Below the pieces are notes generated by a model, which ran no database searches, was not told the origin of the DNA, and saw only the letters and a program-made list of their open reading frames with translations. 64,000 nt of DNA from a phage. The stretch is taken from sequence record PZ452611.1; one strand, written 5' to 3'. A program made the position numbers and the translations under genes. Position 1 is the stretch's first letter. Every line of letters starts with the position of its first letter. This document shows, piece after piece, positions 2,488 through 28,289 of this stretch.

Positions 2488-4911
2488 ATGAGCATGTGGT
2501 CTTTCGATTTTGAGTCATCCGGTTTGCTGGAAGACCCAGATCTTTATTATCACTGCGGCCTGTTTAAAGAGTTGAATAAGAACCGTTTTATGCTGTTCCT
2601 TCCTCTGAATGACCGCACACACTACTCCGAGGAGGATATAGAGAAGGCTAAGAACTTTATTCTGGCAAAGAAAACTCTTTATAAGGATTTTGAAGTTCGC
2701 ATAGCAGATTTTTCAGAGTTGGAAGGTTGGCTTACAGGCAATTCTGACTGGTCACCCACAGCTTTGAACTGCCACAACTGCTACAGCTACGACTTTATGC
2801 TGATGGAGAGATTGTCCGGTATTCATTTTGATATGTTCCGTGATCCTAAGTGCATGGGGACTATCAACGACCACCAGGTTAATCTGTTTGATACGTTGGC
2901 GATGAGCCGAATCTTGTGGCCTGATCGCCCTTTACCAAAAGGTTGTCCGGACTCTGTATTCAACCCGGTTACTAAGAAAATGCAGCCTGTTGGTCCTCAC
3001 GGCCTTATGGCATGGGGCTACGCCCTTGGTAACCAGAAAGTTCAAATTGATGACTGGCGCGATCTTCCGTTGTGGAAGTATGTGGATCGTGTATTCGAGG
3101 ACGTTATCATCCAGGAGCTGCTCTGGAAAGAGCTGGTAGCGGAATCAAAAGGTGTATTCTACGGCAAATCTGACATGCAGAACTTTATGTACGATCCAGC
3201 CAAAGAGAAGCCGAAAGGGTTCAAGAAGATCACCTGGAAGAACGCATTACGTCGAGGCATGCTGCAGCACTTCCTGATGGAGCTGCAGGCCCGTCAGGGT
3301 GTATACTTCGACATAGATGGAGCTATTGCTTTACGTGACCGTTGCGATGCGTGGATGAAAGAAATCGCTGATCGTGTTGAACCACAACTACCTTTAAAAG
3401 AGCTGTCAATGTCTCAGCGGCCCAAGTTCCCTGAAAAGCCGTTTAACCAAGACGGGACAATCTCTAATAATGGTTGGAAATGGTTAAAAGATAAGCTTGG
3501 CTATCCTGTAGACATGAGTGCTTTAGAGTTCAAAGCCCCGCCTAAGCGAGCATTTACCTCTACAGGAGATGTCAGCAAGATGGGGATAAAATGGTGTGAA
3601 GAGATGGGCTGCAAAGACCCCGATAAGATGGCTGATTTCTTGAGAGGCTATATTAAGGGCACCTCCACACCACAACCCTTACCTAAAGAGCTGATGGATC
3701 AGGCAATAAGTGATCTGCAGCAGAAGCGAATGCCTGACTGCAAGATACCTATGAAAATCAGCAATCAGGACGACATCAAGCGATACCTAATCAGTGCTGG
3801 TTGGCTCCCAACAATGTGGAGAACTAAAGATGTAACTAAAGACAGCAAGAAGAAAGCTTTACCTGATGCAGATGTTGATGCACGAGTATATGCATATATG
3901 GACGAGCTTTTGGAGTCAGAGTATTGTGACCTAATTATCAACTTCTGGAACAAAACTGATGCTAAGTTCCAGACAACCGTGCACAAGTTCCGAAGCTTTC
4001 CTAACTCCGAAAGGATTAAAAAGGAAGTATTCGGGAAAATACGTAGAAAAGCCAGGGCACTTATTACTTCTCCGCAACTGAAAGATACGTTTGGACACCT
4101 GTGTCCGAATCTTGAAAAATTGAACGGAGAGATGGCTAAAGATATCGTCTTGTGGTTATCATTGCGAAACCGCAGATCGGTCCTTGATCCAATCAAGGAG
4201 GATAAGGTTGATACTGGTCTTCTTAATCACCCACGTTTGAAGATTGACCATAAGCTTCCTGCTAAAAGCTCTGGATTAACAAACACTTCCAGACAGAAAC
4301 ACAGTATTTGTGCAAACATGCCTAAACCATCTCCTAAAGTGGTTATGGGTAAAGAGATGCGTAGTCTGTGGGGTGTTCCTCCGGGATACTTTGAGATCGG
4401 TATTGACGGGTCCAACTTAGAGCAGCTTATCGGGGCTTGGGGTGCCTTTGAGTTCGACAACGGCTTGTATTATGATGTTGTAAGTAACGGAGACGCACAC
4501 CAAAACAATGCTGAGGCATATACAAAAGTAGCAGGCAGAGAGGTGTCCCGTAACGACGGTAAACCTATCACGTATGGGGTTATGTACGGGGCACAAAAAG
4601 ATAAAGTTGCAGATATGCTGGACATCTCCCCAGAGTTGGGACAAAGGGTAATCGATGCACTCTGGGATGCCAACCCAGGTCTTAAGGGGCGCAAAGAGGA
4701 TCTGGAGAAATTCTGGGAAGCAACAGGTAAGAAGTTTATCTACTCTTTTGATGGTCATGCTATCTGGACCCGATCTAAACACTCTTTACTTAATGCATAC
4801 CAACAAAATGGCGGTGCATCGTTGTGTGACTTAGTTGGAATACTCATGCACCACCAGATGGTGAAGCGTGGGTGGTACGATGAAGGTGTTCGTCGTATTA
4901 TTTATTACCAT
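2488..4911 (+). CDS. DNA polymerase, family A (T7 gp5-like), exon 1: 3'-5' exo domain plus polymerase motifs A and B
   Basis: RBS AAGGAGA; exo I motif FDFESSG; motif A EIGIDGSNLEQL...FEFDNG (T7 GADASGLELR...FDNG); motif B ITYGVMYGAQ; frame stops right after His of motif C (IIYYH-K-stop). Confidence 0.85.
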
Positions 4912-5187
4912 AAATAACATTGTGGCTTCATAGAGTAATCTATGTCGAATAACCTCTTTAACTGCGGGAAGCCTAAACCTTATGGCAAGGTAATCCGCAA
5001 CGAAGCGCTCAAAAGAGCGAACGCTCAGAGGCCATTCCGAAAGGAAGTAGACCAGCAAGTGCGGTCGAAATGGGAGGATTCCTGTGGTTGCTTATCATAG
5101 GAATATGAGATGGTCCGATCCTACGTGAAAACGTATGGCTATGCACGTAATGGTGCGGGGTAGCTTAACGACCTACCTGAACTATTG
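4912..5187 (+). ncRNA. putative group I self-splicing intron (ORF-less) interrupting the DNA polymerase gene
   Basis: 276-nt insert exactly within motif C; follows a U (4911) and ends with G (5187); GUGG 4922-4925 can pair with exon CCAU (P1); P/Q/R/S-like elements aactgcgggaag (4960-4971), aatccgcaac (4992-5001), gtagaccagc, gagatggtcc; stops in polymerase frame. Confidence 0.55.
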
Positions 5188-14303: not shown

Positions 14304-14610
14304 TACTTGAAAATTCCTGGCATATCAAGTATAAGGGGGATTTCTAAAATGGATTTCCTCCTTTTGATATTTCACCGGGCTGGATATTTTAAAATTCTTA
14401 GAAAATCAGAAAATGGATCGAAAACTAAAATGGATTTTTTCAGCACAGGCGCGGAAAATTGTGCCAATCTATCTAGCCGTTTGCACCATATTCGAGATCA
14501 CCGTTCCAGATTTCCCACACATACACACCTCTCCACCATACCTTTCTCCACTCACTCTTAGTGATTTATGACGGAAAACCCATCGCTATCAGTGAGTTGC
14601 GGTACAATTT

Positions 14611-14795
14611 TTCCAGTACTCGATCTACTTTTCATCTCATGGCTTGGATTTTCTGAAAATTTTTCTCGATAAATTTCTCAGTACTCGATCTGTTTTTCGT
14701 TTTCTGAATCGGATTTTCTGGAAATCGTTCCGGAGCTCGACCTGAAATTTTTGGGGACGAAATCGATTTTTCGTTTTCAGAAATGGATTTTTAAA
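14611..14795. repeat. three imperfect tandem ~60-bp repeats in AT-rich non-coding region
   Basis: cagtactcgatct at 14614 and 14679; ggattttctg recurring; third diverged unit to 14795. Confidence 0.5.
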
Positions 14796-15078
14796 ATTTC
14801 TATATGGGAATATTTTATGGGATACTGTTTTATAGGAAATTGTTACGGAGGGTAATTAGCATGCTAACTAAATTTATGAAATGCGAAAAGTTCTCATTTA
14901 GAATTTTGAATGATAATCATTCTCGTTTGCAGAATAACGGGCACCCCCGGTGATTGTCTCCCGGCCCCTACTGCCCCGGCTTGTTATTATAGTAACACAC
15001 AGGACAAAGAAAGCAAGAAGTTTTTGCATAAATTTTTAGACGATAATGATAATCGTTCTCATTTTATGCAGCGCCCAT

Positions 15079-15114
15079 CCCCGGTGGTTGTCTCCCCCGT
15101 CACCGGTGCCTGCC
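15079..15114. repeat. GC-rich ~36-bp element, copy in forward orientation (partial copy 14944-14962)
   Basis: ccccggtggttgtctcccccgtcaccggtgcctgcc; about 33 of 37 positions match reverse complement of 23739-23786. Confidence 0.55.
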
Positions 15115-15318
15115 GTCCTTTCGATAGGTATATTGTGCCACCTGGCGGGGCCGCTGTCAACACTTTTCAAAAAATTTTTCTAACCTGATGCGCTAACCGC
15201 TGCAACCTGGCGGGGCCAGCCTGGCAGGACCTAACTGACCAGGTAGGAGAGAATGAAGGCTTATAATCTGGTGGGCCTGTGCTATAGGATAGGTAACAAT
15301 TGAAGAGGAGGTACAAAA

Positions 15319-24929: not shown

Positions 24930-25349
24930 ATGAACATTAAATCTAATAATCCGGCATATAGCTTTGATAACGCTTTTTGTCACGGTCCGGCGGCGAAAGG
25001 ATTCGAAATCGATGGTAAACTAATTATTGTCAATGTTGACGGGGAAGAGGTTGCAGTATATCCGGTGGCAGACGTTAAAAGCCGTTTGCAATGCCGCATG
25101 GATGTTACCGCCTACCAGCTTGATCCGGTCCGCATAGTTGCCCTGGTCCTGGAGGAAGAGATCAAAGCCATGCATCATAGCAATAAGTTTATCGGTGACG
25201 CGCAAGATAATATGAAGGTATGCCGCTATAAAGTTAATGAAGTGCTTAAAGAATACGGCTTCAAAGATCTGATGATCAAGCGTGATGAAAAATTCCGTTA
25301 TCGTAACGACCTGGCAAATCGAATCTATGAAATATACGAATCATTATAA
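24930..25349 (+). CDS. hypothetical protein
   Basis: promoter 24852-24880; RBS AAGAGG; last plus-strand gene, followed by terminator. Confidence 0.5.
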   Translation: MNIKSNNPAYSFDNAFCHGPAAKGFEIDGKLIIVNVDGEEVAVYPVADVKSRLQCRMDVTAYQLDPVRIVALVLEEEIKAMHHSNKFIGDAQDNMKVCRYKVNEVLKEYGFKDLMIKRDEKFRYRNDLANRIYEIYESL

Positions 25350-25367: not shown

Positions 25368-25395
25368 AGGGGCTTTAAAAGGCCCCTTTCTTTTG
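25368..25395 (+). terminator. rho-independent terminator ending plus-strand arm
   Basis: AGGGGC-tttaaaag-GCCCCT then TTCTTTTG. Confidence 0.55.
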
Positions 25396-26347
25396 TCTGT
25401 ATTTCTCCTACCACAAACGGCCCAGCCTGGCAAGTGGAATAATTGACTAGCCAGCAATTACCAACACTGTACAAATATACATATAAAATAACTATTGCAT
25501 AATCTTTCATCTTGTGGTAGCAGGGCCATTTTTACACGTTTTCCTTCCAAAATTGCACGTAATGCAGCTATTGCATAAAATTTAACCTGATGCACATCTT
25601 CAATAGCTTGTCAACAACTAAAAATCTTTATAAGTCATACACTTACATAACCACAAAAGCGTGTTCTACGTGAAAAATCGAGTATAACTATAGCCGCCAG
25701 ATCTCAGAATTTACGTACGCTCACCATTCTATAGTCTGCTAAGTATTTATTCCAACCATAGAATAACAGAATAGTCAATACCTGCATAAAATAATTATTC
25801 GTGTAAACTGCATAACATAAATCAGCCGGGGTGTCAACATTTTTCGTAAACGGCTCGAAATTATCACTGTGAGCTATCATAAACAGAGAAATCTTTAGTC
25901 GTCTAATGTTTACTGTACGTTACTATACTAACTGGAATCATTAGATGACTAATAAAAAGATAAGAAATCATTAACAATGCAATTGTTTTATTCATAACAA
26001 TAAGGCAACTATGCAAACGAATGGCATGGCGCGACGGAGTCGCGACATAATATAAAAGCAGTAACCATCACCCCCGTGATAGTTTGTCTGCAAACTATTA
26101 ATCAGATCATAGTTGCCTTGTATTTAGTTAATCATGACATAAACTCAGGCATAGCCTTCGTCTCGAGGATGTTAACAAGCAAGGCAACTATAGATCTTCT
26201 AATAGTTGCCCTGCTTTTATATTATGTCATAGAAACACCCGAAGGGGTGACCAAAGGTCACCTGGCATAGCCAGTGAAATATTGTAAACAAGTTAATTAT
26301 TATCATGCAAACGAATGGCATGGCTTATCATCTCTGTGTAAATAGTT

Positions 26348-26511
26348 TGTTTGTAAACAGTTTATACGTGAACAGTTAGCTGTGTAAACTATCAGGCATG
26401 TAAGCTATTGAGCATGTAAACAGTAAAGGTCGTGAACAGTAAGCGAGCGAATAGTAATGGCGTGAACAATGACAGCGTAAACAGTCAGGCATGTCAATTA
26501 TGTTCAGTGTG
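26348..26511. repeat. tandem array of 11 units, 15-16 bp period, consensus n6-GTRAACAGT (iteron-like)
   Basis: 9-mers start at 26348, 26363, 26378, 26394, 26410, 26426, 26442, 26457, 26472, 26487, 26503. Confidence 0.7.
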
Positions 26512-27953
26512 TCACCATTATGTCATATTGTGTCAGACAAGTTTTTCTCCTCTTTGTCAAGTGCTGCATGAAAAATTTACAATCTGGTATGGTAGCATTT
26601 TTGCGGCCCTGTTTACATTCAGTACTGTATGTATAAGCCTTGTTGTGTGGGCGCTTAGACGTCTAGACGGTTGGAAGTCTGCAGGTCAATATCTAATCTA
26701 TTGGTTGCTAACTATATCCCACACAAATAGTAAGAAATGCAATTGTTATATGCGTAAACTGTAACTCATGTTATCAATCCCTGTATGGATCGCCAGTGGT
26801 GCGCATAATAGGTATTATGTTAAATTGCCAGTAATGATAACTATTCTCACAGTGATAGGTATTCTCATTCAACCCCACAAGATAGGTTGCAAATGTTGTG
26901 CCACTGTGTGAACGGCCTCGCCTATTAATTTGCCTCACTGCCTCGATATTTGAGAATTATTATAAGAATGAGAAGTATTCCCATTTCGTCCGCCTGGCAG
27001 CACTCCTGTAGGTCAGGTCAAAATCGGGAGAGAACTGGACCTGTTCAGATATTTCTGGCTGGCTCTTCAGGTCTGTGTGGGAAAAGCCGACCCCTCCGGC
27101 GGCGGGGAGGGGGTCAATTAAAAAATTTACGGGGCATATGAAGCGCTCTTCAGGTAAGGCATGTATTATGGGATGAAACCCTCTTCAGGAAATGATATTT
27201 GTGGGTGTGATATTTGCTGGAAAGCTAGATATGACTGGACTCCTGGCGGGGCAGGGGTAGTACAGACAGGGGAAATATGGGGGATGTAGTTGGGTAAATT
27301 GATCAGGCAGGTAGAGTATGGAATATGTTACGAGTATGTTAAATATGGAGGGTGAATATCTGCAGGATTTGTGTGTAAAATCAAAGACTTAAGTGGTGTT
27401 GTGGTATTTTCTATAAATAATTCAAGTTTAATAGGTGATATTTGTCCCTATCCACTTTGTGTGGTAAACAGATTCAGATGAGATTGGTTTACGAGTGTAT
27501 ACATAATATACAAATTAAAGATACAAGAAACCCCCCTCCCCCTTCGGCTACCATTCACCTTTTCCTCTGACTGGTACTTAAACACTTATTCAGACTCTTC
27601 AGGTTATCACCCATATATCATATGGCAGTGACTGGTGTCCTCCGGCCCCTCTTTCGTCACCCGTCCGCTTCGCCATGCTAATGCCATAGCCAATGGTTCG
27701 GTTGTTCACCCTGTTCACTCAGGTGTATCTCCATACCCCTTCAAACCGAAGAGAACAGAAAACCCGAATTACTCGGTAAAAGAAAAGAGAAGAACTTAAT
27801 TTTATCAGGATAAGCAAGAATGTCAAGGCATGACTGCTCACTAAACAAGCAAACAGTCATGTGTGGGAGGTAAGTGATTGTGGTGGTAGGAAATTTAGTT
27901 GAAAGATGTGTTATAGGTGCTCCCAGCACTTTAGCCGGGTAGCTAATTGTGTG

Positions 27954-28169
27954 TCAGTCCAGCGGTTCATCCTCTACTTCACTGAAATCAATGTTCATGG
28001 TCTCTTCCCAACCATCGATCTCAGCACAAGAGTGAAGTTCTTTAGGGTTTACTCCCAAAGCCTCAGCAACAGAGTCTATATTTAACACCTCTGGCAGGTA
28101 TGATTCATCGAATTCAAGGTAAATCAGGCCACGAGTGTTGTCAGCCCCACCAAATATTTCTATCTTCAT
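27954..28169 (-). CDS. hypothetical protein
   Basis: ATG (MKIEIFGG) 5 nt after GAGGAG; track ORF trimmed. Confidence 0.4.
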   Translation of the reverse strand: MKIEIFGGADNTRGLIYLEFDESYLPEVLNIDSVAEALGVNPKELHSCAEIDGWEETMNIDFSEVEDEPLD

Positions 28170-28289
28170 GAAATCTCCTCTGGAAATGAGAGTGTGAACA
28201 GGGTTTATACGTTCCAATGCACTGGAATTATGCACGTTTGCCTCTTCAGGCCATGCTTTAGCATGAGGAACCTGTGTGGGCTCGGTGCT

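Follow-up and report, generated by a model that had tools for sequence, protein, structure and literature searches.

In phage T7, arrays of short repeats adjoin the terminal repetition, a hairpin intermediate forms near the right end, and pac sequences lie beside the junction. Work by Dunn and Studier in 1983 and later studies of T7/T3 packaging reportedly described short exact direct terminal repeats with adjacent short-repeat arrays. In the genus Vequintavirus, 'short terminal redundancies of 458 bp' are stated for phages EdH4 and HdK5 (Korf et al. 2019, PMC6563267); the Klebsiella phage KPP-1 (Mydovirus) has a 514-bp direct terminal repeat (116,316-116,829) that PhageTerm assigned to the T7 type, with twofold coverage (PMC9862379), and a 342-bp repeat has been published for the phi92-like phage BME3. 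The available text of the 2013 genome paper of Escherichia phage rV5 (V5; Vequintavirus) draws a grey box labelled 'non-coding', to which it assigns no function, and a later phage annotation guide cites rV5 as an example of 'wastelands with no apparent genes'. This box corresponds to positions 25396-27953 (2,558 bp) of the 64,000-nucleotide stretch of DNA analyzed here (the window), which is the reverse complement of rV5 sequence: the 2,558 bp are 100% identical to rV5 104,014-106,571, minus strand, and a window position w converts to rV5 131,967 - w. The gene-free 2.6 kb is very probably the junction that an assembler produced by circularizing a linear, non-permuted genome with short direct terminal repeats.

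Terminal repeat and fixed genome ends

The region contains a single copy of a 459-bp sequence, 26536-26994 (rV5 104,973-105,431), that is identified as a direct terminal repeat by the ends of deposited records, by repeats at both ends of such records and by annotated repeat_region features in relatives. At least 11 GenBank records of relatives, 90-95% identical to rV5 across the whole region, begin or end exactly at window 26536 or 26994, and records that end inside the region always do so at one of these two positions, in either orientation. The records of Pr121LW and Aya start at 26536, those of ECP2303 and HdK5 end there, and four 'bov' records, which run in the opposite orientation, start at 26994. 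An exact direct repeat is present at both record ends in ECP2309 (459 bp) and YN3 (458 bp), with both copies mapping to 26536-26994; in four relatives' records, the intervening 458/459 bp are duplicated at both ends, and the depositors of Gotham (MT682716) annotate repeat_region features at 1-459 and 136567-137025. Among the countries of the laboratories that share these record ends are China, Hungary, the USA and Germany. The magaca and naswa records also contain features called 'repeat_region', but these are 34 bp long and distinct from the terminal repeat.

In an alignment of 14 Vequintavirus genomes (rV5 and 13 relatives), on which the motif, boundary and conservation comparisons in this work are based, both repeat boundaries are invariant, with indel hotspots just outside each. 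The left boundary (...TGTCA|GACAAG) is the center of the palindrome TGTCAGACA, and the right one (...CCGCC|TGGCAG; ...CGTCCGCC|TGGCAGC) is the center of the palindrome GCCTGGC. The two features that define T7-type ends, a direct repeat at both ends and fixed, non-permuted termini, are both found in the deposited sequences of close relatives, and the identical boundaries suggest that rV5 shares them. The common record ends, the repeats at both ends and the published redundancy therefore indicate that the rV5 'wasteland' is the collapsed junction of a linear chromosome, in which the assembly likely reduced the terminal repeat to one copy. An earlier note on this DNA, made from the sequence alone, had listed a joined genome end in an assembled permuted genome among several options; the joined end is borne out, whereas the permutation is not, given the fixed ends with a 459-bp direct terminal repeat. 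The packaging site that the same note had considered follows from the joined ends, since terminase would cut at the two boundaries of the repeat; the flanking repeats that terminase might use are putative. The repeat lies about 1 kb from the last gene of either arm, the intervening untranslated DNA measuring 1,140 bp toward the plus arm and 959 bp toward the minus arm.

The terminal redundancy of the genus is already published and annotated, and terminal non-coding repeat zones are a known feature of such phages. EdH4 and HdK5 (PMC6563267) and Gotham (MT682716) share with rV5 the same 458/459-bp sequence, 90-95% identical and with the same boundaries; however, these sources provide only a length or a feature line and do not connect the repeat to the rV5 'non-coding box' or 'wasteland', nor do they describe the flanking arrays, promoters and palindromes. 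What appears to be new is the link between the repeat and that box, the correction of the term 'circularly permuted', and the detailed anatomy of the ends.

Outside the genus, the repeat of KPP-1 lies exactly in the equivalent gene-poor gap between converging arms. This gap is shorter (1.8 kb), lacks the GTAAACAGT iterons of rV5, and is alignable with the rV5 region only in short motifs: small-word blastn of rV5 against KPP-1 yields weak, partly collinear matches (E 0.005-0.1) that were used only for the promoter and the order of elements. The BME3 repeat is located in a gene-free gap of ~3 kb, but the record is untidy and was used only for motif content. In this record (PP239276, ~146.1-147.3 kb), two copies of the 342-bp repeat, one with Ns, are found ~860 nt apart near one record end (1726-2067 and 2586-2927 of the examined stretch), and the 'DTR-L' feature is not placed at the record end; the double repeat is probably an assembly or annotation problem. 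The blastn search for distant relatives with the repeat and its flanks matched only Vequintavirus, and the search of IMG/VR with gp159 retrieved only three close relatives, adding no divergence for covariation analysis.

Right flank and the possibility of a non-coding RNA

Beyond the right boundary are the first unique bases of the other genome end (26995-27050), in which ~20 conserved nt (TGGCAGCNCTCC) are followed by an indel hotspot (102 alignment columns per 50 reference bases). The adjacent segment (27063-27189, plus strand), delineated by repeat families and the 14-genome alignment, comprises three conserved copies of CTCTTCAGG around an imperfect GC hairpin. These copies are located at 27063, 27146 and 27181, two of them within a 20-nt repeat, ATGAA(G/A)C(G/C)CTCTTCAGG(T/A)AA; together with the copy at 27595, they account for the fourfold occurrence listed in the earlier note. 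The window as a whole contains 8 copies, compared with 0.55 expected, and three of these lie inside genes, where the minus strand reads CCT-GAA-GAG (Pro-Glu-Glu). A fifth non-coding copy is found outside the region, in the short spacer upstream of gp158 (28242-28250), where the coding (minus) strand reads CCTGAAGAG; given this location, CTCTTCAGG may be a feature of minus-strand transcripts rather than of the genome end itself. The other motif reported as fourfold, GATATTTG, is indeed present at 26945, 27194, 27209 and 27437, but its count in the window is insignificant (6 compared with 3.0 expected, a count reached in 7 of 100 shuffles), and only its clustering and conservation in relatives stand out. 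The GC-rich palindrome previously placed at 27088-27113 exists but actually spans 27089-27115, with one extra G, and is imperfect. The stem of this hairpin varies among the genomes with partly compensating changes, and on the minus strand, where it is followed by CTTTTCC, it could serve as a weak terminator at best.

The next segment is a G-rich, C-poor tract (27160-27480, plus strand), recognized by skew and composition, with a G-quadruplex (G4) motif at 27248-27283. It has the most extreme 200-nt GC skew in the window (+0.62; mean -0.04, standard deviation 0.17), with 70 G and 17 C in 27200-27399. Plus-strand RNA of this tract would be prone to form R-loops. Minus-strand RNA would resemble a Rho-utilization site, being rich in C, poor in G and unstructured (folding energy of about 0 to -5 kcal/mol per 120 nt). 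In KPP-1, a G-rich tract of the same sense, also with a G4 motif, lies ~130 nt past the repeat.

Beyond this tract is an ultra-conserved untranslated block (27520-27870, minus strand). When 27500-27880 (381 nt) was used as the query, all 119 records were 97-100% identical, compared with 90-95% for the whole region; in local bins, identity is 98-100% compared with 90-97% in neighboring genes, and the conservation is even, without a codon pattern. The block shows no fold signal and no signal of a conserved open reading frame (ORF). It is not derived from the host because no match was detected in 5,426 E. coli genomes; a blastn search for distant relatives with the block retrieved only Vequintavirus. 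It is a candidate for either the body of a non-coding transcript or a cis-acting DNA element. Facing this block, on the minus strand, is an orphan near-consensus sigma-70 promoter, TTGACA-16-TGaTAAAAT (27799-27826; 11 of 12 matches and an extended -10), located downstream of the last minus-arm gene and directed toward the genome end, with no ORF behind it. This promoter is invariant in the alignment except for one spacer base. It is one of 18 sites in the window that match the sigma-70 promoter at 11 or more of 12 positions, all oriented with their transcription arms, 8 on the plus strand (2347-24852) and 10 on the minus strand (27826-58896). The orientation of these promoters supports the use of the host RNA polymerase throughout, as the rV5 authors propose in the available part of their paper.

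These features raise the possibility, which we consider tentative and which may coexist with the joined ends, that at least one functional non-coding RNA is encoded in the right flank. The principal candidate is a transcript of ~270-700 nt that would start at the 27826-27799 promoter and cover the conserved block, acting as a regulator, as a decoy or as an antisense partner of the transcript from the promoter inside the repeat (see below). All other promoters of this quality in the window drive genes, whereas this near-consensus one, with its extended -10, is followed by no ORF; the block is conserved evenly rather than codon-wise, and the convergent, conserved promoter in the repeat would yield an overlapping antisense RNA. 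The RNA searches point in the opposite direction. Rfam has no match in the region at the gathering score, and with the threshold relaxed to E <=5 it returns only two chance-level matches, both on the gp159 terminator and none over the block; ARAGORN predicts no tRNA in the region. Folding of 27500-27795 on the two strands is no better than that of shuffled sequences (z -0.36 / -0.13), and a structure scan of the alignment over 27140-27680 gives no signal on either strand. The corresponding alifold scan of the 14-genome alignment with column shuffling detects a signal at 25880-26300 and nowhere else, with the same strength on either strand; in the indel-rich part, the scan is unreliable where a window has 3-4 usable sequences. 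Moreover, the putative transcript has no intrinsic terminator, its Rho-type end being deduced from composition, nhmmer finds no homologue in KPP-1 and BME3, and a literature search turned up no Vequintavirus transcriptome. The suggestion of the earlier note that the region carries non-coding RNA genes is therefore unsupported by Rfam and by the structure tests, but the orphan promoter does face a 97-100% conserved untranslated block.

Left flank, elements inside the repeat and replication

The rV5 GenBank record contains no annotation between gp159 (24930-25349, plus strand) and gp158 (27954-28235, minus strand). The plus arm is closed by an intrinsic terminator (25368-25395, plus strand), which consists of the stem-loop AGGGGCTTTAAAAGGCCCCT at 25368-25387 and a subsequent T-run and follows the gp159 stop at 25349. 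A terminator scan recovered this element where the earlier note had placed it, and the stop of the last minus-arm gene at 27954 was confirmed as well. The genome end on the plus-arm side begins with an AT-rich untranslated spacer (25396-25994; 87-94% identity among relatives, no conserved ORF); in the alignment, 25400-26050 is conserved and 26050-26535 is rich in indels. The spacer is followed by a cluster of inverted repeats and hairpins (25995-26230) that was recognized with a repeat finder, by motif counts and by a folding signal on both strands. It includes four copies of (C)AAGGCAACTAT in alternating orientation (26002, 26109, 26181 and 26202), the motif count being 7 compared with 1.4 expected, a perfect 18-nt inverted repeat (26044-26061 / 26211-26228), and hairpins at 26030-26044, 26063-26084 and 26079-26100. 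The first of these hairpins, CGCGACGGAGTCGCG, is the GC-rich palindrome that had been noted near 26031. An exact 20-nt direct repeat, ATGCAAACGAATGGCATGGC, starts at 26011 and 26305. The folding signal at 26000-26119 (z ~ -4.4) is equal on both strands and therefore points to a DNA palindrome rather than a strand-specific RNA; 26001-26100 shows 98-100% identity in relatives. Given its position, the cluster may form a cruciform or hairpin at which concatemers are processed.

The tandem array described in the earlier note is real. It consists of nine iteron cores, GT(A/G)A(A/G)(C/T)N(A/G)T, with GTAAACAGT as the typical copy (26338-26485, plus strand; Tandem Repeats Finder period 16, repeat families), spaced by 15, 15, 16, 16, 16, 16, 30 and 15 nt, or ~1.5 helical turns; GTRAACAGT occurs 7 times compared with 1.3 expected. 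Such regularly spaced direct repeats, with palindromes and AT-rich DNA nearby, are what an iteron-type replication origin bound by a phage initiator would display, and the rV5 authors sought an origin by skew analysis, the available text of their paper listing 104,425-105,475 among the GC-skew change points. We nevertheless consider an origin at this array unlikely. The number of core matches in relatives ranges from 1 to 9, with 1-2 remaining in FFH2, Aya, bov10K2 and V18; the last two, otherwise intact, have lost the array itself. Because it is hypervariable among relatives, the array appears to be dispensable. No initiator gene is adjacent, and there is no conserved ORF in or beside the array. 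Furthermore, GC skew turns from positive to negative in this region, where the cumulative GC skew reaches its maximum; this sign change fits a terminus or converging transcription and is opposite to the expectation for an origin, and the rV5 authors themselves tie skew changes to the orientation of transcription in the available text. Accordingly, the unstable copy number and the terminus-like skew leave the origin suggested in the earlier note unsupported. Reading the sequence by eye, without a tool search, we noticed neither a Chi site nor a cluster of DnaA boxes. In V18 (KY683736; 129 kb, marked circular), a run of 12 T replaces the iterons (aligned with window 26290-26470); this loss may have occurred naturally or may reflect a collapse of the repeats during assembly.

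Between the iterons and the repeat is a helically phased array of (A/T)NT(G/A)TGTCA units (26493-26535, plus strand), defined in the 14-genome alignment. Its spacing is 9-11 nt in rV5 and mostly 9-11 nt or multiples thereof across the genomes, with 1-7 copies. The last TGTCA ends exactly at the left boundary of the repeat, and GTCA is always at position -4. The location suggests that this array is a candidate recognition array for the end-cutting enzyme. In phage lambda, the ends are 12-nt cohesive ends without a terminal repeat, and the cos/cosB region contains arrays recognized by terminase along with host-factor sites. Like cos/cosB, the rV5 end has phased repeats directly beside the cut, and a bending or regulatory protein may have a site near the cut; however, the rV5 array is located outside the terminal repeat.

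Inside the repeat, two kinds of elements were identified. The first is a terminal promoter, TTGTCA-18-TACAAT (26554-26583, plus strand; 10 of 12 matches in the scan), whose -35 begins 18 bp from the genome end and which reads inward. Both hexamers are invariant in the 14 genomes, and KPP-1 has a promoter-like TTGTCA-18-TACAAA 16 bp from its repeat boundary. The second comprises three 19-bp palindromes (26833-26851, 26851-26869 and 26967-26985) that resemble Fur boxes and conform to the consensus AATGAGAATnATTCTCATT, the third being 9 bp from the right repeat boundary. The E. coli Fur box has the consensus GATAATGATAATCATTATC and, in the 7-1-7 form, TGATAATnATTATCA. All six matches to AATGAGAATnATTCTCATT in the window with at least 14 of 18 positions (expected 0.9) are in the repeat or at 14880-15063, and at least 15 of 18 positions are matched in 4 cases (expected 0.0). 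An independent scan with the Fur 7-1-7 form finds the same sites (6 matches with at least 12 of 14 positions compared with 0.37 expected), and similar boxes are present in or beside the repeats of KPP-1 and BME3. Judged from sequence, the palindromes are candidate operators for a dimeric DNA-binding protein, either the host Fur or a phage regulator; rV5 gp153, ~1.6 kb away, is annotated as a transcriptional regulator. The repeat palindromes match 11-12 of 14 positions of the 7-1-7 form, the boxes at 14909 and 15041 match 15/19 and 17/19, and one BME3 box matches 14/14. Conversely, the phage consensus AATGAGAATnATTCTCATT deviates from the Fur box at a symmetric position (G/C instead of T/A), and its conservation in phages that infect different hosts is equally compatible with a regulator encoded by the phage.

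The sites at 14880-15063 belong to a second gene-poor stretch of the window, 14560-15250 (rV5 ~116.7-117.4 kb), which consists of two tandem units. In each unit, GC-rich DNA and a -10-like element come after a very good Fur-box-like palindrome, which agrees with GATAATGATAATCATTATC at 15/19 positions in the 14909 region and at 17/19 in the 15041 region. A total of 216 phage records, representing at least five genera (Vequintavirus, Certrevirus, Mydovirus, Phapecoctavirus, a Salmonella phage), contain the core, 14869-15019, and the box AATGA.AATC.TTCTC.T is invariant in a cross-genus alignment of six sequences. A Fur-regulated small RNA was considered and rejected because this six-sequence alignment has no consensus fold and Rfam has no match. 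The module looks like conserved operator and promoter DNA.

A more elaborate scheme, which we regard as improbable, would make the genome end an actively regulated control region. The terminal promoter would fire through the repeat, past the Fur-like operators, which in this scheme are common to at least three genera of rV5-like phages, and into the G-skewed, G4-prone tract, where a stable R-loop would serve as the primer from which the T7-like polymerase and helicase replicate the DNA. An antisense or insulating RNA would come from the orphan convergent promoter and the conserved block, and the end-proximal start of replication would be gated by the iron status of the host or by a phage repressor. 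Such an R-loop-primed start would resemble those of the T7 primary origin, T4 oriF/oriG, ColE1 and mitochondrial CSBII.

Working of the genome end, competing explanations and implications

With linear, non-permuted ends, the virion chromosome would start at 26536, run rightward through the minus-arm genes and around the map, and return via the plus-arm genes and the 1.14-kb left flank to end at 26994 with the second copy of the repeat, so that transcription of the terminal genes would be directed outward at either end. If rV5 behaves like T7-type phages, the concatemers formed during replication would contain a single repeat copy at each junction; the packaging enzyme would cut both boundaries, each at the center of a small palindrome, and DNA synthesis would duplicate the repeat. 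Recognition and processing would likely take place at the phased TGTCA array, which ends at the left cut, and at the inverted-repeat cluster located 300-540 bp further in; the 16-nt iterons could be a slippage-prone accessory, relatives without the array being still deposited as complete genomes. Transcription of the plus arm would be stopped by the hairpin terminator, and that of the minus arm, which has no hairpin terminator, probably by Rho at the C-rich, G-poor tract before the repeat is reached. The terminal and orphan promoters, which face each other across the right flank, would produce convergent untranslated transcripts, and the three palindromes in the repeat probably bind a regulator, either the host Fur or a phage-encoded one.

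This arrangement resembles that of T7 in its fixed, non-permuted ends with a short repeat (160 bp in T7, 459 bp in rV5), in the untranslated unique DNA with short-repeat arrays on both sides of the repeat, in the promoters near the end, and in the inverted repeats on the right-end side of the concatemer junction. In addition, the available annotation describes the family A polymerase of rV5 as similar to that of T7 and includes a gp4-like primase-helicase. There are also clear differences: rV5 is a 138-kb myovirus without a phage RNA polymerase; its end genes read outward, whereas the early genes of T7 read inward from the left end; its untranslated flanks, at ~1 kb each, are much longer; the repeat motifs are unrelated in sequence; and in rV5 the link of any element to packaging is putative.

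Several observations weigh against joined linear ends of this kind or against parts of the scheme. The ends of rV5 itself would be assigned from boundary sequences identical to those of its relatives, and the roles of the flanking elements are proposed from position, phasing, conservation and analogy. The nhmmer profiles of five sub-blocks have no match in KPP-1 and BME3. The consensus AATGAGAATnATTCTCATT was partly derived from phage sequences, a circularity that the Fur 7-1-7 scan reduces yet does not remove. Finally, the available text of the 2013 paper calls the rV5 genome 'circularly permuted', and PhageTerm called the Vequintavirus BpE1AUH, from a phage cocktail, headful with partial permutation.

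The last two observations would fit a circularly permuted, headful-packaged genome, with the region as a pac site or a plain intergenic gap and the record ends of the relatives as copied conventions; most of the 122 phage records that contain the region are also opened elsewhere than at the repeat boundaries. This explanation is very unlikely. Instead of variable, permuted ends, independent records from several laboratories share both end positions, in both orientations, and the repeat, and a copied convention would not create the exact 458/459-bp duplication seen in four of them. The published redundancy and the annotated repeat_region features agree with each other, and the related KPP-1 has twofold coverage over its repeat. 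The 'circularly permuted' wording rested on 3.6-fold Sanger coverage, terminus mapping being unmentioned in the available text, and direct terminal repeats were flagged by CheckV in the BpE1AUH genome despite the headful call of PhageTerm.

As for coding potential, the earlier note had listed four ORFs of 60-110 amino acids (aa), and exactly four ORFs of at least 60 aa are found inside the region (64, 110, 63 and 62 aa); its conclusion that the 2.6 kb is gene-free holds, with no ORF conserved in relatives and no match to protein families, Rfam or tRNA. Pfam and PHROGs scans of eight ORFs of the region yielded no matches. The ORFs of 110, 64, 63, 58 and 45 aa contain stops or frameshifts in most of the 13 relatives, and the ORFs 25704-25880 and 25458-25595 are likewise broken in most. 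By contrast, ORF 26768-26911 (47 codons, with a hydrophobic stretch) is open in all 14 genomes, with 8, 9 and 10 variable sites at the three codon positions, that is, without a third-position bias, and ORF 27635-27799 is intact in 13 of the 14. The persistence of these two ORFs and the 'hypothetical proteins' that several depositors annotate here could be taken to indicate unannotated small protein genes (e.g., ORFs 26768-26911, 27635-27799 and 27741-27929), but this is hardly plausible considering the even distribution of variable sites in the first of them, the absence of a Shine-Dalgarno sequence upstream of 26768 on reading the sequence, the lack of Pfam and PHROGs matches, the inconsistent positions and strands of the annotated proteins between records, the disruption of the larger ORFs in relatives, and the trivial openness of ORFs within an invariant block.

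If the ends are as proposed, the 'wasteland' of the annotation guidelines is explained as the terminal region of a genome that had been described as circularly permuted. Genomes of rV5-like phages, which are widely used in therapy and typing, should then be opened at rV5 105,431, with the 459-bp repeat at both ends. This would make the genomes collinear and remove spurious 'hypothetical proteins', and is relevant to engineering and rebooting. The anatomy of the ends further provides deletion targets for the recognition and cutting of concatemers in a large myovirus with T7-type ends, namely, the TGTCA array, the inverted-repeat cluster, the palindromic operators, the G-rich tract and the ultra-conserved block. 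The operator family common to the repeat, the 14.9-kb stretch and other genera provides a testable lead to an end-acting regulator, either the host Fur or a phage-encoded one.

A few additional observations concern the records and genes around the region. A group I intron (Rfam RF00028, 64.7 bits, E 4e-14) was detected at window 4902-5137 (rV5 126,830-127,065), between two coding sequences annotated as 'DNA polymerase' (ORF 228 and ORF 225), and small 'hypothetical' ORFs overlap it. This intron appears to split the gene of the T7-like DNA polymerase; the available text of the rV5 paper mentions introns only in the terminase gene. Nineteen unannotated MG0656xx records of 35-143 kb ('Campylobacter phage A135, A147, C15, ...', host C. 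jejuni) contain the region at 93-95% identity and look like coliphage genomes deposited under the wrong host. Finally, gp158 (27954-28235) is annotated in rV5 as a protein of 93 aa starting from GTG, whereas in every relative it is annotated with 71 aa, starting from an ATG at ~28169 (MKIEIFGG...). The internal ATG at ~28169 has a GGAGA ribosome-binding site, and the rV5 start was probably called too far upstream.

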